Below the pieces are notes generated by a model, which saw only the letters and a program-made list of their open reading frames with translations, did no database searches and had not been told where the DNA came from. A program made the position numbers and the translations under genes. Of a stretch of DNA of 48,763 bases, positions 1-46,091 are shown piece by piece. The stretch is from IMG/VR virus record IMGVR_UViG_3300043640_000055, positions 1 to 48,763 of that record; one strand, 5' to 3'. Position 1 is the first letter of the stretch. The number at the start of each line of letters is the position of its first letter. Source of the DNA: a virus.

Positions 1-127
1 CGCAGCAAGGAAGATCGCCAAGGAAATAGCGGAAAGCCAAATCCTGGCGCTGCAAGTGTCGATCATGAAGCAGCAGATCAACGCGCTGGATTCGATGCCG
101 ACGCCGGAAATGGTGCAGGCCGCAAGA
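1..127. repeat. Terminal overlap copy 1, identical to 48637..48763 (circular closure of the contig)
   Basis: Read directly: cgcagcaaggaagatcgcc...gtgcaggccgcaaga is present at both window ends. An ORF reads through the join in frame. Confidence 0.95.
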
Positions 128-456: not shown

Positions 457-752
457 GCACACAACACACACCCTTGCCTTGGCAGATCAGCGATGCCCGC
501 ACCGTCGAAGGCACCTTTATGATCGTGGGCGGCGAGGGTTTCGGGTTTGGTTTGATCGCCGATGTCACAACGGCAGAGGATGCCGCCTTAATTTTCAAGG
601 TTGTGAACAGTCACGACGCGCTGGTTCGCGCATTGGAGGAAATTGATGCCGTGGCCGTGTCGAAGAAAGCCGGTTCTCTTGTGCGGATGCAGCGCATTGC
701 CCGGAAAGCTCTTGCGGGCGCCGCGGCTTGTAGCAAGTGGGAAGCGGTATGA
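453..752 (+). CDS. Hypothetical protein (99 aa)
   Basis: ORF track; translationally coupled on both sides. Confidence 0.55.
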   Translation: MSTQHTPLPWQISDARTVEGTFMIVGGEGFGFGLIADVTTAEDAALIFKVVNSHDALVRALEEIDAVAVSKKAGSLVRMQRIARKALAGAAACSKWEAV

Positions 753-3416: not shown

Positions 3417-3486
3417 GGAATGGTTCAATCGAGAGCGGAGCAAACTGCATCTGGTTTGCGATCACCTTACCACGGAGAAACCTGAA

Positions 3487-3852
3487 ATGAGTGACGCGAT
3501 TGTGAAATGGGTGGCGGGCAACGACAAGGGAGCCTCAAGTGAGGCGATAGCCGTTTCGGCTTTGGGGATGGTGCCGAAGAGCCCTAGTTATCCGCATGAC
3601 GGCAGTGACTTTGGCCGCTGCTATCGTCTCCTGAAGGTTGCGCCAGAAGCCAGCAAGGGACTTGAACGCCTCGCGGCAGACGGAGGCAAGGTTTGGGCGG
3701 CGTTGGTCCCGCGCTGGCATGAAATCGAGGCGGCCTATCTGAGCGACAAGGGCTGTTATGAACTGCTCTGCGAGATCATCCACCCGATTGAGGATGCATC
3801 CGGCAAGGTCGTCCGCTTGAAGGGTGGCGCGATTTCCTTCGGCAGAATCTGA
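3487..3852 (+). CDS. Hypothetical protein (121 aa)
   Basis: ATG 3487 preceded by GGAGAAACC. The longer track ORF (3352) overlaps the previous gene. Confidence 0.5.
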   Translation: MSDAIVKWVAGNDKGASSEAIAVSALGMVPKSPSYPHDGSDFGRCYRLLKVAPEASKGLERLAADGGKVWAALVPRWHEIEAAYLSDKGCYELLCEIIHPIEDASGKVVRLKGGAISFGRI

Positions 3853-3868
3853 AGCATCGGGACTGTCT

Positions 3869-3879
3869 CCTGACTTCTC
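3869..3879 (+). repeat. CCTGACTTCTC motif, copy A (extended identity actgtctcctgacttctc with copy B; gttgatgtg at 3901-3909)
   Basis: Read directly; intergenic. Confidence 0.9.
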
Positions 3880-3975
3880 AGAAGCCTAAGCGTTCTCAGT
3901 GTTGATGTGTTTCAATTGATCACCGAACAACCTGATACGGCATCGCGATCACCTAACTACGGAGAGGGCTGCACA

Positions 3976-4173
3976 ATGCACATCGAATTCGGACCCAGCG
4001 AGCGGATTTTGCCAGAGGTCGTCTGGAACCACATTGACGGCCCCCTCATGTATTTGAGCAACCATCAGCTTCATTGGCTGACATGGCGCGAGCGGCTGGC
4101 GCTATGGCTTGGCTTCTCGACCTTGGAAGCGGTTGATGACGATTACGTCTCGGGCCGCAAGCGGAATTGGTGA
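3976..4173 (+). CDS. Hypothetical protein (65 aa)
   Basis: ATG 3976 preceded by GGAGAGGG; sits inside the track ORF 3907..4173. Confidence 0.45.
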   Translation: MHIEFGPSERILPEVVWNHIDGPLMYLSNHQLHWLTWRERLALWLGFSTLEAVDDDYVSGRKRNW

Positions 4174-4259: not shown

Positions 4260-4838
4260 ATGGCACGAAGGAAACGACAGCCTTACAACCCGGCAAAGGT
4301 ACATGACCGGCGAGCTACTGATCTACTGCGGAATGCTCAAGTCTCTCCGATCGAAGTAGACGACCCAATGGAACTAGGCGCCAAGCTCATGGTCATGAGA
4401 TCCACCAGGAACGACCCACTGGCGAATCTTCACGCCCGTAAATCGATCGATGAAGCGCAGTACGCCGGGGGTAGGGCTTTCCAGCAGGATTTCGAAACCG
4501 CGGAACGGGGGCCGAAGGCAATTGATCCATCCCAGCCGTATGTCGATTGCTCCCGCGTCGAGCGTGGCATCTCAGCGGCCATTAGCAAGGCGCTGGATGG
4601 CCTGACGAAAGCCCGCGATGAGCTGGGCCAGAACGGCGGGGCGCTCATGCATGACTTCCTAATTGAAGGCCTGAACGTCGTGGAGATCGGCATCAAGCGC
4701 GGCATGGTTTCGGAATTGGAGCTTAAGTATCTCGGCAAGAGGGTTCGGGAGTGTCTCGAATCTCTGGCTATCGTTTACGGGTATGCAATGCAGTGCCGCC
4801 GATCAGAGAAACCCCTTATTTCATTGAACAACTTGTAG
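4260..4838 (+). CDS. Putative regulatory protein; possibly a late-gene activator of the GafA/DUF6456-like type (tentative)
   Basis: 192-aa ORF and the last gene of the early arm. NDPLANLHARKSIDEAQYAGGRAFQQDFETAE resembles a motif I associate with alphaproteobacterial GTA/phage activators; this is from memory and unverified. Confidence 0.4.
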   Translation: MARRKRQPYNPAKVHDRRATDLLRNAQVSPIEVDDPMELGAKLMVMRSTRNDPLANLHARKSIDEAQYAGGRAFQQDFETAERGPKAIDPSQPYVDCSRVERGISAAISKALDGLTKARDELGQNGGALMHDFLIEGLNVVEIGIKRGMVSELELKYLGKRVRECLESLAIVYGYAMQCRRSEKPLISLNNL

Positions 4839-6358: not shown

Positions 6359-6493
6359 ATGAACTCCAATAAACCGCTAAGCAGATATTATCTGGCCCGG
6401 ATGGCGTCTGATGATCGTAGGGCGGCTGAAGCCAAGCGCCGATACGCTGAAGAGCGCGGTCTCAACCCGATCACACTGAAGCCGCTCGGCTAA
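6359..6493 (+). CDS. Small protein (44 aa)
   Basis: GGGAGA RBS. MNSNKPLSRYYLARMASDDRRAAEAKRRYAEERGLNPITLKPLG. Confidence 0.4.
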   Translation: MNSNKPLSRYYLARMASDDRRAAEAKRRYAEERGLNPITLKPLG

Positions 6494-6555
6494 TTCAATC
6501 TCACACCGCATTGGCTGAAGCGGATTAACGGTCACCCAATCATTGGAGTCGTGGG

Positions 6556-15646: not shown

Positions 15647-16036
15647 ATGGCTAATACCATCACCAAGACAACCATTCTCGACGGCCCGCGCAACTTCGTC
15701 CTGCTGCTCAACATCTCGGGCGACGGCTCGGGCGATGAAACCAACACCAATATCTTTACCCGCGCGTCGTTTGCCCCGACGACCGGGACGGAAATCGTCA
15801 TTGAAAAGGTCGCGGGCAATCTGAACGGCTTTACCGCAACGCTGATTTTCGACGCCACGACTGATCTGCCCGTCGTGTCATGCCCGGCCACTTGGTTCGA
15901 ATACGACTGGAAATGCTTTGGCGGGGTGTCTTCGAACAAGGCCGGTGCCGGGGCTGCTGGCGACATTCTCCTGTCCACGGTTGGGCTCGGCTCTGGCGAG
16001 AAGGGCACGATCATGATTGAGTTGAAGAAGATCTGA
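15647..16036 (+). CDS. Small virion-associated protein (129 aa)
   Basis: ORF track; GGGAG RBS. Confidence 0.55.
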   Translation: MANTITKTTILDGPRNFVLLLNISGDGSGDETNTNIFTRASFAPTTGTEIVIEKVAGNLNGFTATLIFDATTDLPVVSCPATWFEYDWKCFGGVSSNKAGAGAAGDILLSTVGLGSGEKGTIMIELKKI

Positions 16037-17991
16037 TGACCAAGATCAGCGAACTTCCGGCAGGGGCTACACCGGACGGAACGGAGAAAGTCCCCGTCCT
16101 TCAGGGCGGCGCGACTGTCGCGCTGACGGCGGCGCAAATTGGGACATCTCCAGTAGGGCGGCCGTTCGTCATGCTGGTTACGGGGCAATCAAACCCTGTT
16201 CATGAACCGACCTTTGCAAACTCGCCCAACGCCAACGCGACGCGCTGGAATAACGCTCTCGGCACCGAGGGCAGCGTAGGGACGGCATACGCCGCACTCC
16301 CAACGACCACCATCAATGTCGGCGACAAGATCGCATCGGACGTTGCGGACGCTTTTACCATCAGGCCGGTGAAGGTCATCAATATCAGTTCCTCTGGGCA
16401 ACCCATCGCGCAATGGTTGTCGGGGGCAAGTACAGCGGGTGCCCTAGTAGACGTTTACGCGGAAATTCAGGCCAACATCGCTGCGGCGCTTGCTGCGGCG
16501 GGCGTCACGAAAATTGACGCCTTCGTGTGGTGGCAGGGCGAGAGCGATACTTCAAACGCTTCCTACGTCGCCAACTTCGCCACGATGATGACGCGGTTCT
16601 GGACCAACTCATGGTTCCCGCAGGAAACGCCAGTTCTGATATTCGGCATCGCGCCGACCTCGATCAGTGGCGATGTTGGGTCCAACAAGGTCAACAATTA
16701 TCTGCAAGCTATTGTTGGCGCGGACTCCGACAAGCGCAAATTCGTTTATACTGGCGCGCTTTCCGCCGCTGGTTACTGGGTCGATACCCTGCACATGACA
16801 GGGCAAGGCTATTATTCAGCGGGCGCGATGGCATCAGGCGCTTTCCTCAATGGTGTTGGTCGCGCGTCGTTTCAAGGTGTTATCCTCGATCCCGTAACCG
16901 GTTTCATGACCATCGGCTATCCGGTGACGCCGGATGCCCGCGTGACGATCTCGGGTAATACAGGGCTAAAGACCGGAGCAGCCGGAGCGGCAGTCCACGC
17001 TGCTGGAGCAGACGGCACTACTCAATCTTTCTTCTTTGATGCCTTCGGCGGATCGAACGCTTTAGTCTCTCGTCGTTGGGATGGCACATTCGACAGCTCA
17101 TTAGCCGTTGGCGCGGCCTTGCAGATATGGAGTTCGCAAGGATACGCATGGGATGGCTCAACGATTGCCAGCGCCGTCGCGACATTCGACGCTCTGACGG
17201 TTAATGCACAATCCGGTTCCGATCACAGCACGCGATACCGGATGCGCCTGACGCCGACGGGCAGCACCGCGCTTGCGGAGTATTTCAGTTTCGATCCTGG
17301 ATTTTTGACCATCTATGGCAAAACTTCGGGAAGCGTGAAGTTCGCGGTTCCGGATGTCGCTGGATCGAACACGATCACATGGCCTGCGGGGACGACGAAT
17401 TTCTCGGCGACCGGCGGAACATCTCAGGTGGTCAAGCAAACCGCCGCTGGCGGTGCGCTCACTGTCGGGCAGCTCGCCTTCTCGGATATCTCCGGAGCGG
17501 CCAATCTTACGTCTCAGGCAACGGGAACGCTCCCTGTCGCAAATGGCGGCACGGGCGTCACAACGACTGCTGCCGAGCAGGCCCGCATGTCCATTGGCAT
17601 GATGAGGGTGTCTATCACTGGCGTGAATTTCAATTCGGCCAATACCGACAATGTCATTGTGCTCCAGATGCCGAGCGACAGCACGCGGTTTTCGATTTAT
17701 CGCGCGTTGATCTACCATGCCTCGGGAACGCTTACGACCTCCACTGTCGGACTTTATACAGCGTCCAGCGCTGGTGGGTTGGCGCTGATACCGGCGGCGA
17801 CAGCCGTCACGGTGTCAACCGCAGCTGACGCGACGGCGAACAATGGACAGAGCATAACAGGCGCAAACTTCGGAACGACCGTAGTAGCCGCGTCTATGGC
17901 GACCCCGAATACGATATATTTTCGCATTCAAACCCCGCAGGGGGCGGCCCAAACGGCAGACATATTGATCGATTATTTCACGATGCCGTAG
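16036..17991 (+). CDS. Tail fibre with SGNH/sialate-O-acetylesterase-like (DUF303-type) domain
   Basis: N-terminal ISELPAGATPDGTEKVPVLQ fibre motif. LVTGQSNPV and FVWWQGESDTSN match the GQSN / WxQGESD esterase signature. Confidence 0.75.
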   Translation: MTKISELPAGATPDGTEKVPVLQGGATVALTAAQIGTSPVGRPFVMLVTGQSNPVHEPTFANSPNANATRWNNALGTEGSVGTAYAALPTTTINVGDKIASDVADAFTIRPVKVINISSSGQPIAQWLSGASTAGALVDVYAEIQANIAAALAAAGVTKIDAFVWWQGESDTSNASYVANFATMMTRFWTNSWFPQETPVLIFGIAPTSISGDVGSNKVNNYLQAIVGADSDKRKFVYTGALSAAGYWVDTLHMTGQGYYSAGAMASGAFLNGVGRASFQGVILDPVTGFMTIGYPVTPDARVTISGNTGLKTGAAGAAVHAAGADGTTQSFFFDAFGGSNALVSRRWDGTFDSSLAVGAALQIWSSQGYAWDGSTIASAVATFDALTVNAQSGSDHSTRYRMRLTPTGSTALAEYFSFDPGFLTIYGKTSGSVKFAVPDVAGSNTITWPAGTTNFSATGGTSQVVKQTAAGGALTVGQLAFSDISGAANLTSQATGTLPVANGGTGVTTTAAEQARMSIGMMRVSITGVNFNSANTDNVIVLQMPSDSTRFSIYRALIYHASGTLTTSTVGLYTASSAGGLALIPAATAVTVSTAADATANNGQSITGANFGTTVVAASMATPNTIYFRIQTPQGAAQTADILIDYFTMP

Positions 17992-26125: not shown

Positions 26126-27535
26126 ATGGCCGGACGTTTCAATAACCCGTTTCCTCAGTTCTTCGATTCATCGCCCAACGTCTATTCGGGCGGGAAGCTG
26201 TATTTCTACGCTTCTGGCACGTCCACGCCGCTTTCCACCTATACCACGAAAGCACTGGCGGTCGCCAATACTAACCCGGTTGTGCTCAATTCTGCCGGGC
26301 GTCCATCGACCGATATCTTCCTTCAGGACCTCGAATACAAGGTCGTCCTGAAGGACGTTAACGACGTGGTGATCTGGACCGCTGATCCGGTATCCCATCG
26401 CGATTCCGCCTTGGTGGCAAAGACCCTGACCGGGAACGGCTCTCCCAACGGGGCTGTGGCTGGCACAGCGGGCTCGGCAAGCATTCTGCCGGACTTCTAT
26501 TGGGATTATACCAACTCGGTTCTGTACGTCTGTACGGCCACGGGAACGGCTTCAACAGCGGTCTGGACAGCGGTTAATGCGTCTTCGGCCACGGCTGCTG
26601 TTCCGCCTCCGCAGGGGAGATTGACGCCGGTATCTGGCGCCAGCGTTATTTCTTCGGACGCAACATCTGTCACGGCCATCTATTATACGCCCGTCGTCGG
26701 AAATCTGGTCCCGATCTATAACGGAGCTTCGATGATCCCGACCGAGTTCTCAGAACTCACGCTGACACTGGCAGCAAGCCATGCGCTCAATACGATCTAT
26801 GACGTGTTCGTGTTTTCCAATTCCGGAGTTCTCACGCTGGCAACTGGTCCGGCATGGAATACGTCAACGGCAGGATCAGGAGCGCGGGGGACGGGAGCCA
26901 GCACCACGCAGATTGCGCGGGTCAAAGGTCTTTATGTTAACGCCGTCTCCATGACGGGCCGGAATGGTGCGAACACATACACGATCGGGGCTAACCTCGC
27001 GACCTATCTTGGTTCGATCTTCATTGATGGCACGGCGGGACAGGTGACCTGTCATACGTCTTACGGGCAGTCGCGAAAGTGGGGAGTGTGGAACGCCTTC
27101 AACCAACGGCAAATCCTCCTTAAGGCAGGGGATGCTACGGCGTCATGGGCGACGGCCACCGCCACATGGCGGCAGTCGCGAGCCGACGCCACGAATTTTG
27201 CGATGGCGTTCACTGGTTTAGCGGACGGCACCGTCACTGCAATGTTCGAGCAATACGTAACTCTCGCCATGGGTAACAATACGCCAGAGGCCAATATCGG
27301 CATCGGGATAAACTCGACGACGGTCCTGTCCGGGCAACTTGGAGGCGCGATGCTGTCGGATAATATCTCCGGCGTCTTCTTTATGAATGCCAATTTGGTT
27401 GCCAAAACCGATCTGGTTCCATCCCTCGGCGCCAACCAGTTCAACATGATCGAGCAGGCGCCGACCGTTTCTGCGAGCAGCACATACAACGGCGGTTCAT
27501 CCAAAATGCGGATGGACCTGTCCTATCCGGGCTAA
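26126..27535 (+). CDS. Tail fibre / receptor-binding protein (second set)
   Basis: N-terminal FFDSSPNVYSGGKLYFYASGTSTPLSTYT...NPVVLNSAGRP...YKVVLKDVNDVVIWTADPV is a common phage fibre N-domain pattern. Confidence 0.7.
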   Translation: MAGRFNNPFPQFFDSSPNVYSGGKLYFYASGTSTPLSTYTTKALAVANTNPVVLNSAGRPSTDIFLQDLEYKVVLKDVNDVVIWTADPVSHRDSALVAKTLTGNGSPNGAVAGTAGSASILPDFYWDYTNSVLYVCTATGTASTAVWTAVNASSATAAVPPPQGRLTPVSGASVISSDATSVTAIYYTPVVGNLVPIYNGASMIPTEFSELTLTLAASHALNTIYDVFVFSNSGVLTLATGPAWNTSTAGSGARGTGASTTQIARVKGLYVNAVSMTGRNGANTYTIGANLATYLGSIFIDGTAGQVTCHTSYGQSRKWGVWNAFNQRQILLKAGDATASWATATATWRQSRADATNFAMAFTGLADGTVTAMFEQYVTLAMGNNTPEANIGIGINSTTVLSGQLGGAMLSDNISGVFFMNANLVAKTDLVPSLGANQFNMIEQAPTVSASSTYNGGSSKMRMDLSYPG

Positions 27536-28035: not shown

Positions 28036-28326
28036 GCCGGGAACCTTTACCAACCCACTCCCACAATCATCAAGAGAACACCAAGCCGAATCTCAAAGGC
28101 CGCCAAGGGCTACGGCAATGGCGGCGACCACGGCAATCGAAGCGCCACCGTAAAGAACCAATGAAATTATTTGATCTGTCATAGGCGGAACCTACCACCA
28201 CAACCCCTGATTTCACAAGAGAACAGACCATGCCTCTTATCGTCTTTTAGCGAGGGAAGGCTGTTTCAATTTACCACCGAAACCGCGGGAAACGTCTCGC
28301 GATCACCCTACTAGCGAGAAATCTGC

Positions 28327-29238
28327 ATGAATTGGCCCAAGGACACTCAAGCGGCCCGGAACGCCTTTTATGGCGACCCTGGCAAGGGGCAGATCGCGTC
28401 CCAGATGGTGCCGGTCGTCCCGCCCTTCGCGATGTATTACGACGGCAAGCGGGTGAAGGCGATCCAGTTCCACCAGAAGGCCGCGCCCGCGCTGCTCGCC
28501 GCCCTCAATGAGATCTGGGACTATTGCCAGCACGATCAGGCCAAAGTCGATGCCTCCGGGGCGTCCAATTACAACGGCGCCTATAACCATCGCATGGTCC
28601 GCGGCTCGTCCACCAAGTGGTCGAACCATGCCTATGCCACTGCGATCGACCTGAACGCTGGCGAGAATGCCCTTGGCGTCAAGAAGGGCACGATGCCGCA
28701 ATTCATCGTCGATGCCTTCTGCCGGCAGGGTGCGATGTGGGGCGGCTGGTATAACGACCGCCCCGATTGGATGCATTTCGAATTTGTGGACAACGGCGGG
28801 CGCAAGCCCAAGTCCGCGCCTCCAGTATTTGGCGCAAGCGTTCCGGTCGCGAGTGCGCCAGCTGACGAACTTGAAGAGGATACCGAGCACGAGGCCGAAA
28901 CCGCGCCTGCCCCGAAGGCAATGTCAACGTCCAAAATCGGCGTGACGCAGATCGCTACCGGCACCACGGCAGCGGTTGTCGGAACCGCTCAAGTCGCGTC
29001 ATCCGTGGTCGGCCAAGTCAATGACGTTGCCGATCAGGTTTCGACGGTAACCGACAAGGCCGGATCGATCATCGAAACCACTAAAACGGTCGTGGCTATC
29101 CCAAAGCCCGGCTTCTGGTTCCATGTCCTGCACGCCATTACGAGCCCGGTTTTCATCGCCTGCGTCTGCCTGATGATCGTGGTCGCGTGCGGGCTGACTT
29201 GGTACTGGCGCCGGCAGCACGCAAAGGCGGGTGTCTGA
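28327..29238 (+). CDS. Endolysin: M15-family zinc peptidase with acidic linker and C-terminal TM anchor
   Basis: SNHAYATAIDLN (H-x6-D type) and DWMHFEF motifs. C-terminal hydrophobic span ITSPVFIACVCLMIVVACGLTWYW followed by RRQHAK. Confidence 0.8.
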   Translation: MNWPKDTQAARNAFYGDPGKGQIASQMVPVVPPFAMYYDGKRVKAIQFHQKAAPALLAALNEIWDYCQHDQAKVDASGASNYNGAYNHRMVRGSSTKWSNHAYATAIDLNAGENALGVKKGTMPQFIVDAFCRQGAMWGGWYNDRPDWMHFEFVDNGGRKPKSAPPVFGASVPVASAPADELEEDTEHEAETAPAPKAMSTSKIGVTQIATGTTAAVVGTAQVASSVVGQVNDVADQVSTVTDKAGSIIETTKTVVAIPKPGFWFHVLHAITSPVFIACVCLMIVVACGLTWYWRRQHAKAGV

Positions 29239-29624
29239 TGTGGGCTCTCTCGTATCTGTGGGCGAATTTCGCCCTAATCCTTGTCGTGACCTTGGCTGTT
29301 GTTGGCCTCGGGTTTCTCGCGTTCTTCCTGAAGAACTGGAAGGCCGCGCTCGCCGCCGTTGTTGTTCTGGGTCTGGGCTTTGCCTACATGCAGATCGACA
29401 AGAACGCCTATCAGCGGCGAGTTAGTGAGGAAGCGGCCGAACGGGTCGATGCCCTCAAAAAGCAGATCAAAAACATGAACGAAGCGGCAGAAGCCGACGC
29501 GCTGCGAGCCATTGAAGATGCCAACAAGATTGCAGAACTGGAAACCAAAGCCAATGAAACTCCTGCGAATAGCGGCGCTTGTCTCGATATCGATGGCGCT
29601 CGCCGGGTGCGAAACATCAAGTGA
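29238..29624 (+). CDS. i-spanin-like membrane protein (two hydrophobic spans plus coiled coil)
   Basis: ATG overlaps the endolysin stop (TGATG). NFALILVVTLAVVGLGFLAFFL and AALAAVVVLGLGFAYM, then a charged helical tail. A lipoprotein gene is embedded at its 3' end. Confidence 0.55.
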   Translation: MWALSYLWANFALILVVTLAVVGLGFLAFFLKNWKAALAAVVVLGLGFAYMQIDKNAYQRRVSEEAAERVDALKKQIKNMNEAAEADALRAIEDANKIAELETKANETPANSGACLDIDGARRVRNIK

Positions 29625-29820
29625 CGTGAAGCCGGGAGATTTACCCCCGGTCCCGTCAGATATTCAGGTTTGCTTCCGCAAGAGCGCGTCCATTATCCCC
29701 GACCGTGCGTTGTCGGTCTATGACGTGGAATCGCTCTGGAAACAGGACCGGATCAAGGTTGTCGTCATGGCGAAGTGCGGCAATCGGCTGGTGGCTTGGT
29801 ACAACGGGCTGCGAAGATAA
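29554..29820 (+). CDS. o-spanin (outer-membrane lipoprotein), overlapping arrangement
   Basis: MKLLRIAALVSISMALAGC lipobox, Pro-rich mature N-terminus. Starts inside the previous gene in another frame. Confidence 0.7.
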   Translation: MKLLRIAALVSISMALAGCETSSDVKPGDLPPVPSDIQVCFRKSASIIPDRALSVYDVESLWKQDRIKVVVMAKCGNRLVAWYNGLRR

Positions 29821-29947
29821 CAAAGACGGCCCGGCTTTGTGGTGGAACACTCAGCCGAGCCTAACCGCCATAGGGCTGGAACCCTAACGACGGCTGGGAA
29901 AATTCCTAGCGGAGAAATCGTTAACAAGCTGGGAAGAAGAAGTAAGC

Positions 29948-30319
29948 ATGTGGGAGCCTGGGGTCATCATCGCCCTCGTCATGGGGGCTGTTGCCATCCT
30001 GAGTAACGTGATTTCGGTCACGGTTTTCGTGGTCAGGCTGGGTGGGAAAATAGACCTGAACAATTCGACGGTCATCGGCAAAATCGATGTCATCGATCTT
30101 CGGGTTAAAGGCGTGGAGGCGGGCATATCCGACCTTAAAAACACCGACCGCCGTCTTTCGCTCGTTGAAGACAGGCAACAAGCCCTTGCTACCCGTCAGG
30201 GCAATATGGAGAAGGATAACCTCCTGATCCGTGACGACTTAGGCAAGCTGCATCAGGGGCTGGACCGTCACGGCACGGTAATGCAGCGGTTTAACGAACA
30301 GCAATTTTCCAAAACCTAA
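29948..30319 (+). CDS. Single-TM coiled-coil protein (123 aa); role in lysis unclear
   Basis: GVIIALVMGAVAILSNVISVTVFVV followed by a heptad-like charged region. Confidence 0.5.
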   Translation: MWEPGVIIALVMGAVAILSNVISVTVFVVRLGGKIDLNNSTVIGKIDVIDLRVKGVEAGISDLKNTDRRLSLVEDRQQALATRQGNMEKDNLLIRDDLGKLHQGLDRHGTVMQRFNEQQFSKT

Positions 30320-30338
30320 CCCTCATTGAAAGCATCAC

Positions 30339-30686
30339 ATGATCTCTCGCCTCGTTCTGGCGGCGCTGGCGCTTGCCTGTGTCGTTACCCCTTCCTATGC
30401 AGCCCAACTTTGCGAGGCGAGTCATTACGGCCATGGCGATGGCTACAACGGGCGTAGGACGGCCAACGGTGAGATATTCGACACGTACCGGCATATGACG
30501 GCGGCGATGCGGATACCGCAGCCGTTCGGCTCCTATGTGACTGTGACGAACCTTGCAAACGGGAGAAGTGTGAGGGTCCGCATCAACGACCGCGGCCCGT
30601 TCATTCGGGGCCGGTGCGTGGATCTGTCCTACGTGGCGTCTCGGGCTATCGGGATGGGTGGTACGGCTCGGGTGAGCGTCCAATGA
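30339..30686 (+). CDS. Secreted RlpA-like double-psi beta-barrel (lytic transglycosylase-type) protein
   Basis: Signal peptide MISRLVLAALALACVVTPSYA. ASHYG...GRRTANGEIFD...AA....PFGSYVTVTNLANGRSVRVRINDRGPF is the RlpA/DPBB signature. Confidence 0.75.
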   Translation: MISRLVLAALALACVVTPSYAAQLCEASHYGHGDGYNGRRTANGEIFDTYRHMTAAMRIPQPFGSYVTVTNLANGRSVRVRINDRGPFIRGRCVDLSYVASRAIGMGGTARVSVQ

Positions 30687-30781
30687 TAAAGGCCCTGATC
30701 GCAATCGCCGTTGTCATCGTGATCCTGTTCATTGCCTACTTGTGGCAGGAAAGGCGGGAGGCGAAGCGGTGTTTGAAGTAA
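30683..30781 (+). CDS. Micro membrane peptide (32 aa)
   Basis: ATGA-coupled to the RlpA-like gene. MIKALIAIAVVIVILFIAYLWQERREAKRCLK. Overlaps the 3' end of the convergent gene 30729..30947. Confidence 0.35.
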   Translation: MIKALIAIAVVIVILFIAYLWQERREAKRCLK

Positions 30782-30947
30782 CCCGCGCGCAGTTCGGGCA
30801 AAACGTACCCTTCCGATAGGACCATGTGCATCCAAACGTCCTGCATTTCGTCCAGCAATCACAGCCGCCCTGATCGACGCCGCAAACCGCGCATTGCAAT
30901 TTGAGTTTGCCGGACCTGAGAGCGGCGAAATCCTCTGCAATGCTCAT
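30729..30947 (-). CDS. Cys-rich small protein (72 aa)
   Basis: ATG 30947 overlaps the stop of the upstream micro-ORF (ATGA). CAVCGVDQGGCDCWTKCRTFGCTW...FCPNC. Confidence 0.45.
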   Translation of the reverse strand: MSIAEDFAALRSGKLKLQCAVCGVDQGGCDCWTKCRTFGCTWSYRKGTFCPNCARVTSNTASPPAFPATSRQ

Positions 30948-31054
30948 AGTGAGCTGGCGACCGCAATGACCGCGAAGCCCACGACCATGGCTGATAGCGG
31001 CCACGTCCATGGAGGGCAGGAGTCGCCATACCACTTCTCTAGAAATTGGCTCAC
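30944..31054 (-). CDS. Micro membrane protein (36 aa), paralogue of 31871..31993
   Basis: GTG after GAGAGGG-N7. (M)SQFLEKWYGDSCPPWTWPLSAMVVGFAVIAVASSL. Confidence 0.5.
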   Translation of the reverse strand: MSQFLEKWYGDSCPPWTWPLSAMVVGFAVIAVASSL

Positions 31055-31071: not shown

Positions 31072-31118
31072 AGCAGGGTGATCGCGATATCTCGCAGATC
31101 GTTCGGTGTTCGATTGAA
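31072..31118 (-). repeat. Intergenic repeat R2, copy 1 (core GGGTGATCGCGATATNTCNCAGATCNTTCGG plus TCGATTGAA)
   Basis: Read directly. Lies 18 nt upstream of the GTG of 30944..31054. Confidence 0.9.
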
Positions 31119-31300
31119 ACAAATAATCTATCACAAAACTCTAAATCCAGAAAGCTAGAATGACCCCAGCCCTCGCCATCCTCTACTTTTTCGGTCCTGT
31201 ATTACCGGCGATGGTCTTGCTTGATTACATGATCAAGAGAGAACCGAATACGCCGGGGTGTTGATGCTGTACGCAGCGGCTGTGTTTTGGGATTGGTGGT

Positions 31301-31639
31301 TTAGGCGGCGACCGGCGCCTTGACGTTCTCAGGGGCGGGCCAACGCTCAACGAACGAATCCATCATCGGCTTGCTGGCGAACCCGAACCATGTCCATCCG
31401 AAAACGGTCGCACTGCCACGAAGCCACTGGCCGGGCTTCTCATGGATCGGCGACGCCTGATCCCCGAAAGTGTCGTAACACCATTCCAGCATCTCGCGCT
31501 CACGCCCTTCGGGGCGGTCGCCGGTATAGGCATCCACCATCCACCTGAAGCCGTCCCACACCTTGCGCATGAGCGCGGCTCGCTCGTCGTCTTCGTAATT
31601 GAACGCAACCATTCGATCATAAAGTGCTGTAGCCATCAT
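31301..31639 (-). CDS. Hypothetical protein (112 aa)
   Basis: GGAGATGG RBS; Trp-rich. Confidence 0.55.
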   Translation of the reverse strand: MMATALYDRMVAFNYEDDERAALMRKVWDGFRWMVDAYTGDRPEGREREMLEWCYDTFGDQASPIHEKPGQWLRGSATVFGWTWFGFASKPMMDSFVERWPAPENVKAPVAA

Positions 31640-31691
31640 CCATCTCCACTATCCCGACGCTCCTCGCGTCGTCAGAACTACCGGGGCCGCG

Positions 31692-31859
31692 TCAGGCAAA
31701 CCACTTGTCCACCTTCTCGTATTCGTCAACCACGTCCTGATAGCCGAGCGCCTTAAGCAGATCGCACAGGACGCCATCTGCGTTGCTGTGCGCCGCTTCC
31801 GTGTCTCCTCTTTGCTGCTCCAGCTTGAGCAATTCAATCGCAGTATTTCGGTCCATCAT
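31692..31859 (-). CDS. Hypothetical protein (55 aa)
   Basis: ATG 31859 after GGAGAGAGA. The longer track ORF reads through the upstream micro-gene in another frame. Confidence 0.5.
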   Translation of the reverse strand: MMDRNTAIELLKLEQQRGDTEAAHSNADGVLCDLLKALGYQDVVDEYEKVDKWFA

Positions 31860-31870
31860 TCTCTCTCCAA

Positions 31871-31993
31871 TCATCCAGACAATTGTAGCACGGCGGCGAT
31901 GATAAAAATCACGGTACCGGCAGTCATCGTTGCCAGCGGCCAAGTCCATGGCGGGCATCGATCGCCAAACCACATCTCGAGAAATTCGCTCAT
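31871..31993 (-). CDS. Micro membrane protein (40 aa), paralogue of 30944..31054
   Basis: MSEFLEMWFGDRCPPWTWPLATMTAGTVIFIIAAVLQLSG. Shares MS-FLE-W-GD-CPPWTWPL with its paralogue. Confidence 0.5.
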   Translation of the reverse strand: MSEFLEMWFGDRCPPWTWPLATMTAGTVIFIIAAVLQLSG

Positions 31994-31997
31994 CGTT

Positions 31998-32363
31998 TCA
32001 CTCATCCGCCCTCGGCACATCGTATTTGTCGGCAGAACCGGCGGGACGGCGAGGTCCGAGTTCGGTTAGGGCTTGGTCGATCATGGCGTGCCATGCCTGG
32101 TTGGGGTAGTTGCCGAAGTTTTCGGATCGCCCCGCCTCAATCATGTCCTCGGTCGGTTCCCGCATTGCTTCGATGGCAGCACGAGCCAGTGACCGTGATG
32201 TTTCGCGGGCAGACTCTTCCGCGTCTTCCCAAGCGCAAGCATCCCCATCCCAGTAATCAAGCCATAGTGCCTTCGCGACTCGTTCAATCATCTCGTTCAT
32301 CTCAAAATCCTTCTGCGCTTCCGTCATTCCTTGCTGAGTGCCGGTAAAGCCGATGGTGGTCAT
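31998..32363 (-). CDS. Hypothetical protein (121 aa)
   Basis: ORF track. The start is uncertain; internal ATGs occur at MTEAQ and MNEMIERV. Confidence 0.5.
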   Translation of the reverse strand: MTTIGFTGTQQGMTEAQKDFEMNEMIERVAKALWLDYWDGDACAWEDAEESARETSRSLARAAIEAMREPTEDMIEAGRSENFGNYPNQAWHAMIDQALTELGPRRPAGSADKYDVPRADE

Positions 32364-32364
32364 G

Positions 32365-32592
32365 TCAGGGGCCTGTGTGTTTCAAGGATTCGCGCTCGGC
32401 ATATCCGCACTTTTCGCAGAACTGCGGATGTTCCGGATGAGGCACATACTGATGCCGCTCGCTGGCGCGTTCAACCCACGGCCATTTTATCCCCTTGTCG
32501 TCTCGGATTTGGTTGGCTGCTTGCTCTACGGCGCTCCAGCTACGGCGGCTGATTGCTGCATGAAGCGATTGAATCATCGGGTGGTCGTTCAT
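32365..32592 (-). CDS. Hypothetical protein (75 aa)
   Basis: GAGGAGA RBS; C-terminal CEKCGY. Confidence 0.55.
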   Translation of the reverse strand: MNDHPMIQSLHAAISRRSWSAVEQAANQIRDDKGIKWPWVERASERHQYVPHPEHPQFCEKCGYAERESLKHTGP

Positions 32593-32649
32593 TGGGGTCT
32601 CCTCGTTATGATATTGAATCGCTTCGCCGCCTTCCGTCGCGGCCCTGCA

Positions 32650-33144
32650 TCAGGTTTCGGCTTGCCGTGGTCGATCGGCTACCTTGCGCGCCCGCTTGGC
32701 TACCTCGATTTCGCGGGAACAGGTATTACAACCATTTGCAAAATCCTCTGGAAGGATTCCGCCCCGGCAATGCGGGCAGCTTACTGCCATTTGATGGCCG
32801 GACCACGCTCTGTCGAGATGTTTGGTGGCGCGAAGTCTCGCCACGGATTTCAGCGCTTCGTTCGCGGTCGCCATCTTATGGCTGGCGTCTCGCTCCATCG
32901 CCTCAAAACGGCGGGTGAAGATTAGAAAGGCATCGAAATTATCGATTGTCCTCTCGCAATTCTCACACCAAACGCGGCGTTCGGTTTGGTTGTAGATGAG
33001 CGCCTTGTGCTCACAAGTTTTGACCCGGTAAGGGGTTCTGCCGCTGCGAATCCGAACGCTGTCGAGATCGACCACGACGCCGACATAGCAGCCGCCATCT
33101 GGCAGAACTTCTAACGGCGGGTCTTTTGGCGTGTCAGTCATCAT
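32650..33144 (-). CDS. Zn-ribbon-containing protein (164 aa)
   Basis: Cys pairs WCENCERT and SCPHCRGG...CNTC. Confidence 0.55.
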   Translation of the reverse strand: MMTDTPKDPPLEVLPDGGCYVGVVVDLDSVRIRSGRTPYRVKTCEHKALIYNQTERRVWCENCERTIDNFDAFLIFTRRFEAMERDASHKMATANEALKSVARLRATKHLDRAWSGHQMAVSCPHCRGGILPEDFANGCNTCSREIEVAKRARKVADRPRQAET

Positions 33145-33224
33145 CGATCCTGTCTCTTTGCCTTACGATTCCCCCCCGCGTGATGTTGGGATGGGGGAGT
33201 GGAATTTGCGGGAGTAGGGCATAG

Positions 33225-33515
33225 TCAATGCGTTTTGCTTTTGGTGTGCCCGGGTTCGACGGTGAGATTTAGGCGATTGATCGAGGCTCGTATGTTGTCG
33301 GCCCATATCCATTCGGGAATGACGACGTTCCCCTTTTCGCGCGGAGCCATCGAATCGTGAACGGTTATAAAAGCGGCGAGTCTGTAAAGCTCCTTCACGA
33401 TGCCGCGCTCAAGTGCTTCGGTCGGCAGGCCATCGCAAGCCGCTAGGGCCGCAGCGCGGCGCCGATCATCGATTTCATAAGTTTTGCCCGGCTCGTTATC
33501 GCGGCTGTCGCTCAT
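33225..33515 (-). CDS. Hypothetical protein (96 aa)
   Basis: ATG 33515 after GGAGGG-N5. Confidence 0.55.
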   Translation of the reverse strand: MSDSRDNEPGKTYEIDDRRRAAALAACDGLPTEALERGIVKELYRLAAFITVHDSMAPREKGNVVIPEWIWADNIRASINRLNLTVEPGHTKSKTH

Positions 33516-33551
33516 CTTCACCCTCCAGTTTCACCCAATGGAATTGAACGG

Positions 33552-33875
33552 TTAGGAGCGGGCAACTTCTGCCGTAATGTCCTCGGGATATCCGATCGCG
33601 CGGTAGGTGATCTTGTGGCCCTTGCTGCAAAGCTCGTCGGCGATCTTCTCGGAGGTGTATGAACTGATCGACCTCACGATCACATCGCTGCAATAAGCTC
33701 GGACGGTCGCCCACTTGACCTGTTCGCGCGCCCGCCACTTTTGCCCCTCCCATAGCTGACAGCCTCCCGGCGCGCTGCGGTCGAAGTCCGCATGGGTGGC
33801 GATCACTTCGCCAGTCGGCGTCGTCATGATTGCGATTACGCCGCGAGGTTGCGGTTTCGGTTTTTCGTCGGCCAT
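33552..33875 (-). CDS. Hypothetical protein (107 aa)
   Basis: GGAGAG RBS. Confidence 0.55.
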   Translation of the reverse strand: MADEKPKPQPRGVIAIMTTPTGEVIATHADFDRSAPGGCQLWEGQKWRAREQVKWATVRAYCSDVIVRSISSYTSEKIADELCSKGHKITYRAIGYPEDITAEVARS

Positions 33876-33962
33876 TTTTCGCTCTCCAGGTTATCAAAGA
33901 TGCTATCACAAATCACGCATCCGTACTACAAACAAAGTGCAACTTCGCTATATAAACCGGGC

Positions 33963-34214
33963 CTAACCTATACTCGAACTCTTCGAATGCAGCGTCGTTC
34001 GATCCCCCGTCAGCTTCTCGACATAGTCGTCTATTGCCGAGATTAAATCCTGTGCAGGAACGCTCGATCGTAGATTGAACATCAGGTAATGCCGTAGCGC
34101 GCCTAGTTCGACGAGGTCGGCTTTGACAGCTTCCTGTCTTGCCTCCTCCTGGCGCTTGAGTTCCTGTTCCTCGCGGAATGCTTTTGCGGCGGCTCGGTTG
34201 TCTGATTTGGTCAT
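33963..34214 (-). CDS. Hypothetical coiled-coil protein (83 aa)
   Basis: ATG 34214 after GGAG-N6. Confidence 0.5.
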   Translation of the reverse strand: MTKSDNRAAAKAFREEQELKRQEEARQEAVKADLVELGALRHYLMFNLRSSVPAQDLISAIDDYVEKLTGDRTTLHSKSSSIG

Positions 34215-34345
34215 GATCGACTCCAACGTTGTTAGAGTTGGTTCTTAACAGCGTCCGGCTCGCTTGAGGAGGGAGACGGATCGGAGCGGTTAGGGGCGCT
34301 TGTGCAGCGTCCGGCCGAATTGCAGCACGTCCAACTGTTCAACAG

Positions 34346-34579
34346 TTATTGGCTTGGCGTTCGCCACATCAGTGCCTTTTCCAACCCGAGGGCCTTCGCG
34401 ATCTTGTCGCCCGGTAGCCGGCGGCTCCGCAGAACGTCGTTGACGTATGCTGCCGATATCTCGTGTTTCGCTGCCCATGCCGCCTGCCCTCCGGTTGCAT
34501 TCACTGATTTTTGCAGACGCGCGATAACGCCATTCCAATCAAGCCACCGGCCCGGCGGTTTAGTTTCTCGGCTTCGCAT
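34346..34579 (-). CDS. Cro/YdaS-like HTH DNA-binding protein
   Basis: GGQAAWAAKHEISAAYVNDVLRSRRLPGDKIAKALGLE has an HTH layout. Confidence 0.6.
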   Translation of the reverse strand: MRSRETKPPGRWLDWNGVIARLQKSVNATGGQAAWAAKHEISAAYVNDVLRSRRLPGDKIAKALGLEKALMWRTPSQ

Positions 34580-34680
34580 CTTCTACCTCAATCTCTGTCA
34601 GGACGGGGGTGGGGAGGCGAGCCGGTCGGCAATCCGCCTGATCGTGTCGCAAGCCTTCTCCACATCCGCTTAAATCTGTT

Positions 34681-34953
34681 TCACTCTGACACTGTTGGTT
34701 GCTGTTGGACCTTCAAGTCAGGAGAGGGCGTCATGTCGGTGCGGGTCGGGCAATAGCGATGGGTGCAAAACTTGTGCAGCAGTGTATCTGCCTTCAGGCC
34801 GCACTCTGGGCACGCCTCGACCGGGTTCGCTAGTTTCAGAATTTCGTCTGCAATCTTCCCCGCGCCGTCATCCCATCCGCGATGGCGGGGCCAGTCTTTC
34901 GGCTCGGGGTCATAGTGTTCGCGGATCAGAGCAATGATATCGTCTTTGGTCAT
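34681..34953 (-). CDS. Small Cys/His protein (90 aa)
   Basis: ATG 34953 after AAGGAG. ACPECGLKADTLLHKFCTHRYC. Confidence 0.5.
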   Translation of the reverse strand: MTKDDIIALIREHYDPEPKDWPRHRGWDDGAGKIADEILKLANPVEACPECGLKADTLLHKFCTHRYCPTRTDMTPSPDLKVQQQPTVSE

Positions 34954-35014
34954 GTGGCGCTCCTTGTTGCTTGTACTATTTAATCGCAGCGACATTCGAA
35001 AAACGGTAACTGCT

Positions 35015-35050
35015 GCTAGGGTGATCGCGATATTTCTCAGATCGTTCGGG
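35015..35050 (-). repeat. Intergenic repeat R2, copy 2
   Basis: gctagggtgatcgcgatatttctcagatcgttcggg, 61 nt upstream of ATG 34953. Confidence 0.9.
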
Positions 35051-35080
35051 CGTAACTTTCTACGATGCTCGTCGCCATGC

Positions 35081-35410
35081 TCAAGAGCGCGGGGCCCCAC
35101 AGGTGCATTCCTTTTCCCCGTCACGACAATCGGTGCAGTCATAACGGCTGCGGCGTTGGCGCGCGTTCTCTGGTAAGTAAGGGCAGTTATAGAGGGGGCC
35201 GTTCGGCATAGACGAGCAGTCCGCATTGCAGGGGCAATCGACCTTATCAGTATCCTCTTTGGCCGTAGCAAAGGCCGCGGCGATCTCGGCAATGCGCTGG
35301 CCCAAGGCTTGCGGCGAGGGGCGTTTCTCAGGCGAGCATTCGAGCCATACCCTAGTGACGATCGCGATTTCGTCCGCAGCATCTTTGCACTCGTCGCGAA
35401 TAGTCTTCAT
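35081..35410 (-). CDS. Cys-rich protein (109 aa)
   Basis: ATG 35410 after GAGAGGA. C-terminal DCPCNADC...YNCPY...YDCTDCRDGEKECTCG. Confidence 0.5.
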   Translation of the reverse strand: MKTIRDECKDAADEIAIVTRVWLECSPEKRPSPQALGQRIAEIAAAFATAKEDTDKVDCPCNADCSSMPNGPLYNCPYLPENARQRRSRYDCTDCRDGEKECTCGAPRS

Positions 35411-35468
35411 CCTCTCATTCCTCTCCATTGCTCGGTTGTCAGATTGAATCCTTAATCGCGGTGTCTTT

Positions 35469-35828
35469 TCAGATTGGTGGGTGGGGGATTGAATCTGGGT
35501 CCGTCAGGTCGGCGTAGGAAAATGTTTTATCCTCCGGCCACCACTTCATGCCCTGCGGATGCGTTCCTGGTGTCTCCGGCGAACGAACCCTTGCGGTCAC
35601 CAAGTCAGGGCGCGGTCGCGGGCCGGGCGGATACTTCGGGTCAACAAGCGCGAACCAGCCATCGCATTTCTCGCAATGGTTTGGATAATTTATGATGTCG
35701 TACAGGATTGCTGTCGGCGCGGTTTCGAGAGAATAAACCGTCATGTCGCAATTCCACTCTTTGCTTTGAAACTCGACCGTCTTGCTACAGTGCGGACAAG
35801 CAACGTAAACACTATCGAATAGTCCCAT
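35469..35828 (-). CDS. Zn-ribbon protein (119 aa)
   Basis: ACPHCSKT...HCEKCDGW. Confidence 0.55.
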   Translation of the reverse strand: MGLFDSVYVACPHCSKTVEFQSKEWNCDMTVYSLETAPTAILYDIINYPNHCEKCDGWFALVDPKYPPGPRPRPDLVTARVRSPETPGTHPQGMKWWPEDKTFSYADLTDPDSIPHPPI

Positions 35829-35846
35829 GGTGCATCTCTTTCAGTT

Positions 35847-35893
35847 GCTAGGGTGATCGCGATATTTCTCAGATCATTCGGCGGTCGATTGAA
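35847..35893 (-). repeat. Intergenic repeat R2, copy 3
   Basis: gctagggtgatcgcgatatttctcagatcattcggcggtcgattgaa, 19 nt upstream of ATG 35828. No start codon is available in any frame through it. Confidence 0.9.
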
Positions 35894-35948
35894 TTGGTGT
35901 TCGAACGCGAACTAAAGCGCCGGGAGAAGGCCAAGGACCGGTGAGGGG

Positions 35949-38977: not shown

Positions 38978-38999
38978 GGTGAAGCCCTCTCTAATGTTG

Positions 39000-39010: not shown

Positions 39011-39026
39011 AGGCGTTGAAGCAATC

Positions 39027-45519: not shown

Positions 45520-45750
45520 CTATTTTTCCGTAGCTGCCTGTATCCGGCTGACAAGCCCGCCGCCGCTGGCGAAGCCTTCCGAGGCCCTCACGTTCGCCCG
45601 GTTGGTGTCGAGATTTGACCGGCACTGTACATAAGCCGGGGAACCGACTTCTACCCCGTAGGACCGGCACTGCCGATCATCCAGCGCGATCCGGTCGTCT
45701 GTCGTCTGGCAGCCGGCAAGCAGTAGAGCTGCAAAAACTGCCCGCTTCAT
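45520..45750 (-). CDS. Small lipoprotein (76 aa), lysogeny-expressed moron
   Basis: MKRAVFAALLLAGC lipobox. The start overlaps the repressor stop (ATGA). Own terminator lies 26 nt downstream. Confidence 0.7.
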   Translation of the reverse strand: MKRAVFAALLLAGCQTTDDRIALDDRQCRSYGVEVGSPAYVQCRSNLDTNRANVRASEGFASGGGLVSRIQAATEK

Positions 45751-46091
45751 GTCCCCGTCCTCGTTTTGACCCTAAATTCAAGGTATTTTGTGGTATCCAG
45801 CCTTTCGGCCTCCTGCGCCTGATCCCAAAGGGACCATATGGCGTCTTCCGCGTCCGGGTTCCGCATGATGAGGCTGGCGGGTTCCGTTTTATACAGGTCT
45901 GCAAGGGCTTCCAGAAGCTCCTGGTTATACGGTTGAAGGCCGCGCTCTATCCGCCCGAGCTGCGCGTGGGACATCCCCACGACCTCGCCAGCCTGTTCTA
46001 GGGTCTTTCCAGCCTTCAGGCGCCATTGGCGCATGAACGTCGGGCGGAAGCGCTGGACTTTCGGCCTTGGTCGGACGGGTTTTTTTGCCAT
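45747..46091 (-). CDS. CI-like XRE-family repressor (short form, no S24 peptidase domain)
   Basis: AGKTLEQAGEVVGMSHAQLGRIERGLQPY HTH. Divergent from the Cro-like gene. Start ambiguous (46091, 46097 or 46112) and no SD, so possibly leaderless. Confidence 0.7.
   Translation of the reverse strand: MAKKPVRPRPKVQRFRPTFMRQWRLKAGKTLEQAGEVVGMSHAQLGRIERGLQPYNQELLEALADLYKTEPASLIMRNPDAEDAIWSLWDQAQEAERLDTTKYLEFRVKTRTGT

Follow-up and report, generated by a model that had tools for sequence, protein, structure and literature searches.

R2, a repeat family dispersed through a temperate phage genome: a candidate factor-dependent promoter cassette

The IMG/VR virus record IMGVR_UViG_3300043640_000055, all 48,763 nucleotides of which were analysed and are hereafter termed the window, is a complete temperate phage genome that carries a family of short intergenic repeats, R2. 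A model-based first-pass annotation had noticed three R2 copies, each just upstream of a group of cysteine-rich (Cys-rich) genes on the leftward strand. R2 is a larger family of DNA sequences, which are built from conserved blocks, point in a defined direction, mostly lie at a near-constant distance from start codons and are conserved across phages, and which have no conserved RNA fold, no coding capacity and no match to the sigma-70 consensus. We lean towards reading R2 as a phage-specific, factor-dependent promoter cassette with a minimal leader, a function suggested by its sequence and its placement.

The R2 family in the window and in other phages

The degenerate 31-mer GGGTGATCGCGATATYTCKCAGATCRTTCGG matches the window exactly at positions 31076-31106, 35019-35049 and 35851-35881 and is not found in any of 100 dinucleotide-preserving shuffles, which confirms the three copies reported earlier. 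A repeat finder groups the same sites into a 44-nt family (31075, 35018 and 35850; identity 75-89%); the 4-nt earlier start in the first-pass annotation includes (A)GCA/GCTA, common to two copies. The extension TCGATTGAA follows GGGTGATCGCGATATYTCKCAGATCRTTCGG in two copies, c4 (31110-31118) and c6 (35885-35893), and the palindrome ATCGCGAT and the GATC sites are also present as described. The number three is incomplete, as the window holds six strong and two weak copies. The exact 9-mer GCGATCACC occurs six times against 0.5 expected, in all six cases between genes. Three strong copies lie on each strand, every one aimed at the adjacent gene, and those on the plus strand (3421-3469, 3908-3956 and 28262-28310) are the reverse complement of R2 as first noted. 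All six align over ~50 nt with a single 1-nt indel, and a sequence-only profile made from them, with which all candidates were scored, assigns them 38-47 bits (E of 6e-11 or better).

Copy c1 (3421..3469, plus strand; type I, TGGTTCAATCGAGAGCGGAGCAAACTGCATCTGGTTTGCGATCACC; 41.4 bits, E 6e-12) lies 20 nt 5' of the ATG of gene 3487..3852, and copy c2 (3908..3956, plus; type II; 43.6 bits), which abuts a second repeat termed R1 (3864-3907), is found 22 nt 5' of gene 3976..4173. Copy c3 (28262..28310, plus; type II; 41.8 bits) precedes the endolysin gene 28327..29238 by 19 nt, at the head of the lysis cassette. The previously reported copies 1 to 3 are on the minus strand: c4 (31075..31121; 47.2 bits), 22 nt 5' of 30944..31054, which starts with GTG; c5 (35016..35062; 38.1 bits), in which the upstream TTCAAT block is missing and from which a 66-nt leader runs to 34681..34953; and c6 (35848..35896; 46.3 bits), 23 nt 5' of the zinc (Zn)-ribbon gene 35469..35828. 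Measured from GCGATCACC to the start codon, the distances for c1 to c6 are 20, 22, 19, 22, 66 and 23 nt, i.e., five of the six fall within 19-23 nt, and the earlier description of copies just upstream of start codons (22, 66 and 23 nt) is borne out. Two further R2-like copies are degenerate and weak. One of them (6493..6538, plus; TTCAATCTCACACCG...GGTCACCCA; 10.7 bits, E 0.026) is followed by GGAG and an ATG at 6556, stands at the head of the small-gene/terminase/structural operon and was assigned by architecture and position; the other (35455..35495, minus; 12.6 bits, E 0.007) lies 5' of the Cys-rich gene 35081..35410. The six strong and both weak window copies are asymmetric, intergenic and in one orientation relative to transcription, as are 17 of 22 copies in other contigs.

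Across the family, the directional blocks TG(A/T)TTCAAtCGa, C(C/G)GA(A/G)C, CTG and T(C/T)GCGATCACC(C) span ~48 bp. Read towards the gene, window copies consist of TG(T/G)TTCAAT(C/T)GA, CACCGAAC (GAGCGGAGC in c1), nnCTG, 9-10 nt and T(C/T)GCGATCACC(C/T), and the last block is followed by ~8 nt, a Shine-Dalgarno (SD) sequence and the start codon. The alignment separates two subtypes. Type I (TGATTCAATCGgACACGGAGCaanCTGCTTcTGGTTT followed by GCGATCACC) comprises c1 and most copies from other IMG/VR contigs; type II, to which R2 as first noted belongs, comprises c2-c6 and, in the contigs introduced below, L182, L201-5959 and L208-7943. The spacer differs by 1 nt in length and its sequence differs between the subtypes, while the blocks are conserved, a pattern of separate blocks and variable spacer that is typical of DNA recognized by a protein or by RNA polymerase (RNAP). 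Short palindromes, TCAAT(T/C)GA and ATCGCGAT, and GATC sites occur in type II copies; type I copies carry the non-palindromic TTGCGATCA at the palindrome position, and ATCGCGAT is confined to type II.

Several familiar kinds of element can be set aside. A structured RNA family is contradicted by the lack of an Rfam match to R2 at the gathering threshold, by RNAalifold, which finds 0 consensus pairs and no covariation among the copies, and by single-copy fold z-scores of -2.1 to +0.85, i.e., no stabler than shuffles. A peptide-coding reading fails, since the 1-nt spacer difference shifts the invariant GCGATCACC between frames and several copies are without a start codon. Of the conservation at the DNA or RNA level proposed earlier, the DNA part therefore stands and the RNA part finds no conserved fold. 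A consensus scan for canonical sigma-70 promoters (TTGACA-N16-18-TATAAT) detects a conserved promoter at 6045-6072 but no site at any R2 copy. Inspection by eye yielded no match conserved across copies for sigma-54, sigma-28, sigma-32, CtrA, DnaA box, IHF or parS, nor for the alphaproteobacterial LexA box (GAAC-N7-GAAC). The end of a miniature inverted-repeat transposable element or another transposon was rejected as well, as a flank alignment of 22 copies shows neither a terminal inverted repeat (TIR) per copy nor a target-site duplication; no transposase is among the scanned phage proteins. Nor does R2 represent a prophage repressor operator: the immunity region bears a different motif, TGTACA-N5-6-GATGCAC, and a profile scan returned no R2-like site between 44 and 47 kb (immunity region and early promoters), even at E<=10. 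Terminator-like sites 3' of R2 copies are absent from 27.5-37.5 kb, and the window contains no tRNA genes.

Patterns and the profile together identified true family members (23-42 bits) in at least six other metagenomic soil-phage contigs, with several copies per genome. They comprise the 1.2-kb soil contig L182; L193/L194, where the copy at 1244-1289 of L193 is 93% identical to c1; and the IMG/VR contigs L200 (9871-9932, ~89% identical to c1), L201 and L208, which form one contig where no fewer than six strong copies occur, L207 (four copies), L204, L205 and L206. R2-bearing records in IMG/VR are IMGVR_UViG_3300012011_000004, 3300015241_000004, 3300044691_000157, 3300031825_000028, 3300050131_000113 and 3300031949_001077. 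The cross-phage statistics rest on 22 strong copies in 8 phage contigs. An open reading frame (ORF) of at least 30 codons begins 14-24 nt past the box in 13 of them, compared with 23% of random positions; adding the requirement of an SD-like motif lowers the random rate to 3.7% (P about 3e-4). Three of the 22 reach their gene via an interposed R1, in the order R2, ~22 nt, R1, ~50 nt, SD and ATG. The same c1-type copy heads three different genes, namely that for gp3487 in the window, a DUF6456 gene in L193 and a homologue of the window's gp6359 in L200. Cultured phages gave no R2 (blastn returned chance matches alone), and bacterial genomes, which served as negative control, gave 80 pattern matches, all at or below 19 bits on the profile. 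The looser pattern CCGAA-N14-15-TCGCGATCACC was discarded: its 45 IMG/VR and at least 120 bacterial-genome loci rescored at 19 bits or less, lie mostly in genes and reflect chance, and L202 and L203 are chance pattern matches as well.

The window genes behind R2 are mutually unrelated; they encode gp3487 (phrog_1229), gp3976, the endolysin, a 36-aa membrane peptide together with a Cys-rich protein, and two other Cys-rich proteins. The units named in the first-pass annotation do encode CxxC proteins, specifically 30729..30947 (8 Cys, 2 CxxC), which 30944..31054 overlaps, 34681..34953 (4 Cys, 1 CxxC) and 35469..35828 (5 Cys, 2 CxxC). The products of 3487..3852 and 3976..4173, behind c1 and c2, contain no CxxC. 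Given the unrelated genes behind other R2 copies, the link to Cys-rich genes is incidental. For annotation, the Cys-rich cluster is thus no special island, and the lysis cassette possesses a putative start signal of its own. In other phages (L166-L181), the sequence in front of the endolysin and 119-aa Zn-ribbon orthologues contains no R2, and nucleotide homology starts at the start codon. This absence upstream of orthologous genes, which the first-pass annotation had counted as telling against a role for R2, is literally what is seen; it does not refute a function, as R2 is conserved before unrelated genes elsewhere.

The promoter reading and its rivals

Initiation of transcription at R2, the assignment of -35 and -10 boxes, the timing and the identity of the factor are what we infer from the sequence. 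The scanned phage proteins include no RNA polymerase, recognizable sigma factor or extracytoplasmic function (ECF) sigma, and hence host RNAP must transcribe these genes; since R2 also misfits TTGACA-N16-18-TATAAT, a helper factor would be needed. Host RNAP would accordingly read R2 only together with a dedicated helper, be it a phage activator, a sigma-4-like protein or one of the host's alternative sigmas; the DUF6456 protein discussed below and a host sigma factor are candidates. In this model, ~-10 would be occupied by the invariant GCGATCACC box and ~-35 by C(C/G)GA(A/G)C, with a spacer of 16-18 nt counted to CGAT, and the TTCAAT block may act as an upstream site. Transcription is predicted to start a few nt past GCGATCACC, yielding a leader of 12-17 nt. 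In this way, separate units would share a co-regulated start: the lysis cassette, the small genes that precede the DUF6456 late regulator, the packaging operon (through the weak copy at its head) and several Cys-rich accessory genes. The lysis cassette is parted from the structural operon by a short cluster of minus-strand ORFs, and c3 is the sole upstream signal found. Because c3 is its only detectable start signal, lytic timing is probable, and the R2 class is probably on in lytic growth and off in the lysogen.

A number of observations weigh against a promoter. ECF-sigma promoters combine a -35 element GGAAC/GAAC with a -10 element CGT(T/C), 16-17 nt apart. Type II copies read GAAC/GAAT/GAAA-N16-17-CGAT and type I copies GGAGC-N17-18-CGAT, AAC is not conserved, and as the putative -35 box varies (GAAC, GAAT, GAAA, GGAGC, GCAC), an ECF-type reading is not secure. 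Moreover, type I copies conserve almost all 46 nt between phages, spacer included, which is more than a promoter requires. Four strong copies (L182, L201-6175, L207-1724 and L208-9699) run head-on into a convergent gene at its 3' end, and behind L201-7227 come just a 5-codon ORF and a terminator; if promoters, these copies would be antisense or orphan. The phage is present in one DNA metagenome run only, and no RNA run containing it was found.

Single genes are also found between inward-facing R2 copies: in L201 between 5959 (plus) and 6175 (minus, to 6222), in L207 between 773 (plus) and 1724 (minus, to 1771), and in L208 between 7943 (plus) and 8432 (minus, to 8478). The reversed copy overlaps the 3' end of the bracketed gene and supplies its last codons. 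Such pairs could be an antisense promoter, an insulator or the trace of a cassette exchange.

R2 might solely be a protein-binding site, an operator or an orientation-dependent “stoperator” roadblock, with transcription beginning elsewhere; we consider this unlikely. The core is long, asymmetric and invariant, type II contains the palindromes TCAAT(T/C)GA and ATCGCGAT, and the intergenic, orientation-biased placement resembles that of L5 stoperators (PMC9283540; PMC3203893). Copies that face 3' ends are easier to understand as barriers or insulators than as promoters, and c1 and c5 lie directly behind the upstream gene, such that read-through transcripts would cross them. Yet, the immunity region possesses a different repeated operator and early promoters without R2-like sites, whereas in L5 the same type of site also serves as a true operator. 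A roadblock, furthermore, needs no fixed distance of 19-23 nt to a start codon, and without R2 neither the lysis cassette (c3) nor the terminal unit 30729..31054 (c4) has a detectable promoter. Lower still do we rate the prospect that R2, with R1, is a dispersed recombination or module-boundary repeat, or the end of a small mobile cassette, with a secondary effect on expression; this explanation is quite improbable as the primary one, and it is compatible with promoter function rather than exclusive of it. The conservation of R2 far exceeds that of the genes around it, downstream-gene homologues occur without it and share homology from the start codon, c1-type copies precede three different genes in three phages, genes in L201, L207 and L208 are bracketed by inward-facing copies, and the order of R1 and R2 is variable. 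The missing TIRs, target-site duplications and associated transposase speak against it, and the orientation, start-codon distance and linked SD imply selection for an expression function.

Very little probability attaches to R2 as an RNA-level 5'-leader element, e.g., a translational-regulator or processing site on read-through or upstream-initiated mRNAs. Proximity to the SD and start codon, a possible hairpin between spacer and block C in c1, c4 and L193, and the precedent of the start-associated sequences (SAS) of Cluster K phages, which are repeats near starts (PMC3203893), would be in keeping with this idea; the absence of consensus structure, covariation and Rfam matches, and energies no better than those of shuffles, argue otherwise. 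In reversed orientation, R2 would contribute a different RNA to the mRNA. SAS, moreover, lie 3-7 nt from the start and contain the SD, while R2 stops 19-23 nt before the start and the SD stands apart from it. Similarly doubtful is the original proposal of a promoter/operator for Cys-rich units beyond attP, independent of PL, possibly active in the lysogen and controlled by 34346..34579 or 45747..46091. Three copies indeed head Cys-rich units downstream of the integrase gene, and the small helix-turn-helix (HTH) gene 34346..34579 sits within the Cys-rich cluster. Copies of identical architecture at 28262, 3421 and 3908 nevertheless head the lysis cassette and non-Cys genes, also on the other arm, which removes the proposed specificity for Cys-rich genes and for the region beyond the integrase and is hard to square with expression in the lysogen; as c3 heads the lysis cassette, activity in the lysogen is unlikely. 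Family members in other phages are not tied to Cys-rich genes either but are followed by unrelated genes. The HTH protein 45747..46091 has its own, unrelated probable operators at 45402-46186, where no R2-like site occurs. What survives of the earlier promoter/operator idea is the intergenic, directional position just 5' of starts, while its Cys-rich specificity, lysogenic activity and control by an HTH repressor are not supported.

The motif family is absent from Rfam and cultured phages and conserved across several uncultured soil phages, whose hosts are Hyphomicrobiales-like. Phages are well known to time their gene expression by repeated promoter motifs of their own, and R2 would be a new family within that kind; the sequence family, its two subtypes, the pairing with R1 and the DUF6456 neighbourhood appear to be undescribed.

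The DUF6456 protein and the wider phage genome

The gene at 4260..4838 (plus), just downstream of c1 and c2, encodes a DUF6456-related (GafZ / GafA C-terminal-like) protein, which is a candidate regulator. Its family comprises more than 1,400 proteins, many annotated as PF20057/DUF6456; the window protein itself is sub-threshold for Pfam DUF6456 (E 0.03), while the 65%-identical homologue P0018 passes the cut-off. DUF6456 is of the GafZ / GafA C-terminal type (PMC9638019). R2 copies and DUF6456-family genes are no more than 1 kb apart in four independent contigs, i.e., the window, L182, L193/194 and L200. In the window, c1 and c2 are upstream of the gene in the same gene string; in L193/194, an R2 copy lies immediately 5' of the DUF6456 gene; and in L200, a copy is located between a divergent DUF6456-family member (hhalign 99.1%) and the gp6359 homologue. 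Foldseek gave no significant match for the AlphaFold model of gp4260 (predicted local distance difference test score 73), and the best local matches of this model, sigma region-4 domains, are likewise not significant.

Tentatively, then, R2 together with R1 may be the DNA sequence through which a phage DUF6456 (GafZ/GafA-type), sigma-4-like regulator recognizes the members of its regulon, a proposal to which we assign a rather low likelihood. Phages with 50-65% identical DUF6456 proteins (L185-L192 and L195-L198) are without R2 in 20-kb segments; c1 is ~89% identical between the window and L200, yet the DUF6456-family proteins are ~25% identical; and DUF6456 genes track a sigma-70-like promoter with a terminator far more widely than they track R2. 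DUF6456 sequence subtypes show no clean pattern with respect to the presence of R2. The link between DUF6456 and R2 is circumstantial, and in view of these facts the factor could equally well be some other phage protein or a conserved one of the host, e.g., an alternative sigma. If the proposal is true, a portable cassette would wire regulator, lysis and accessory genes across phages and represent the first sequence-defined target motif for phage relatives of gene transfer agent (GTA) regulators. The DNA targets of GafA/GafZ-type proteins are poorly defined; should the DUF6456 link hold, R2 would provide a natural set of target sites for binding and transcription assays, and late or accessory regulons would become predictable in metagenomic phages.

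A separate late switch is located 3' of the DUF6456 gene. It features the conserved sigma-70-type promoter CTTGACCGGnCC...GGTACATT (TTGACC-16-TACATT; window 6045-6072), followed by an untranslated leader, the intrinsic terminators 6204-6240 and 6272-6295, and the small-gene/terminase/structural operon. DUF6456 genes at no fewer than seven other loci are likewise followed by this promoter, a short leader and a terminator (promoters at L189:10572, L190:11757, L191:10463, L192:3969, L194:1044, L195:2210 and L197:967), and in the Bradyrhizobium phage ppBeUSDA76-2 a terminator lies directly 3' of the DUF6456 homologue. The layout of 6045-6295 resembles the lambda Q/PR'/tR' switch and would fit an antiterminator role of the GafZ type.

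The second repeat class, R1 (TGTCTCCTGACTTCTC...GTTGATGTG), consists of TGTCTCCTGACTTCTC, ~20 nt and GTYGMKSTGAATC. Besides the copy that abuts c2 (3864..3907, plus), the window contains R1 at 4185-4235, 38995-39045, 43892-43945 and 45082-45135; all five copies are intergenic and on the plus strand, and consequently the three left-arm copies are antisense to local genes. Other contigs carry R1 at L197:1-45, L204:~1647, and L207:~5824 and ~7663. An R1 copy is found 5' of the DUF6456 gene in both the window and L197, R1/R2 tandem composites occur in either order, and GANTC is present within three of the five window copies.

The genome has an exact 127-nt terminal direct repeat (1-127 and 48637-48763) and is thus circularly closed or terminally redundant. 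It encodes a confirmed integrase (phrog_1), Rad52, SSB and exonuclease in the left arm, a structural module of portal, head-closure and tail genes, and a cI/cro-like immunity region. Among cultured relatives, a Bradyrhizobium prophage and Brucella phages come closest, and the CcrM site GANTC is two-fold under-represented (92 observed vs 182 expected); an alphaproteobacterial, Hyphomicrobiales-like host is therefore likely. GATC is commoner than expected in the whole window (324 observed vs 182). Gene 749..1330 specifies a DNA methyltransferase (phrog_799), and the small protein encoded by 95..316 weakly matches the GcrA N-terminal/HTH region. In the immunity region, four copies of TGTACA-N5-6-GATGCAC (45402-45419, 46090-46107, 46120-46141 and 46169-46186) are probably the immunity operators; they flank the divergent cI-like gene 45747..46091 (minus) and a cro-like gene (from ~46186, plus), with one copy ~700 nt to the left.

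Downstream of c3, the lysis cassette (28327..30686, plus) comprises the M15 endolysin, the membrane proteins 29238..29624 and 29948..30319, and the DPBB/RlpA-like protein 30339..30686. The endolysin (28327..29238) matches Peptidase_M15_4 and phrog_17001 and has a hydrophobic C-terminal segment; the product of the last gene adopts a DPBB/RlpA-like lytic transglycosylase fold and has a homologue in L201 (5341..5745). Next to c4, the genes 30944..31054 (minus) and 31871..32005 (minus) encode paralogous small membrane peptides with the motif FLExW(Y/F)GDxCPPWTWPL. A 34-codon membrane-peptide ORF in this leftward cluster, 31161..31265 (plus), lies back to back with c4, and the terminator-like hairpin 31265-31280 belongs to it. 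Finally, a perfect 39-nt direct repeat, ACGATGCCGTAGGCCTCACCAAACGCCCTTCATAATCTC, occurs at 17980-18018, overlapping the end of the tail gene 16036..17991, and at 27595-27633, ~60 nt past the tail-fibre-like gene 26126..27535.

Comparison with known systems

The lambda Q/PR'/qut/tR' system is paralleled in the phage by a gene in the Q position (4260..4838), the strong sigma-70-type promoter 6045-6072, a terminator-bearing leader and late genes. This switch is a separate element, however, with no sequence in common with R2; PR' is single in lambda, whereas R2 has several copies, and no obvious intrinsic terminators are found behind the R2 copies. The T4 middle (MotA box), SPO1 and T4 late promoters are phage-specific families read by a modified host RNAP. 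R2 resembles such T4 and SPO1 families in its near-identical, non-sigma-70 copies with boxes at fixed spacing directly 5' of genes, but its span is longer (46-50 nt), and a minority of copies face the 3' ends of genes.

The promoters of the GafA and GafY-GafZ systems (RcGTA and CcGTA) share with R2 a DUF6456-type regulator gene nearby and dispersed targets with a poor -35. GafA targets its own promoter, the lysis-cassette promoter and the RcGTA structural-cluster promoter (PMC6363796), and R2 copies occur at three analogous kinds of place, at the regulator, lysis and structural head; by analogy, the locations of R2 parallel the GafA targets. GafZ binds a palindromic site located between the -35 and -10 elements, after which it works as a processive antiterminator (PMC11150451). 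The CcGTA ZBE palindrome (GCGCCCG-CTGGCGC) is unrelated to R2 in sequence, Caulobacter GafZ has a single target rather than several, and for GafA/GafZ there is no published consensus site to compare.

With L5 stoperators, R2 has in common an asymmetric site, a location in short intergenic gaps, a prevailing orientation and a genome-wide dispersal (PMC9283540; PMC3203893). Stoperators are 13 bp long and match the early-promoter operator, whereas R2 is a block-structured element of ~48 bp that the immunity region lacks; an L5-type assignment, in which the site is the repressor operator at the early promoter, was rejected because no R2 site lies in 44-47 kb. The SAS and extended SAS of Cluster K phages are, like R2, conserved across phages, oriented with genes, placed before unrelated genes and provided with an optional upstream extension (PMC3203893). 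In contrast to R2, whose core stops 19-23 nt short of the start codon (66 nt in c5) and leaves the SD outside, SAS are 13 bp long, lie 3-7 nt from the start and include the SD.

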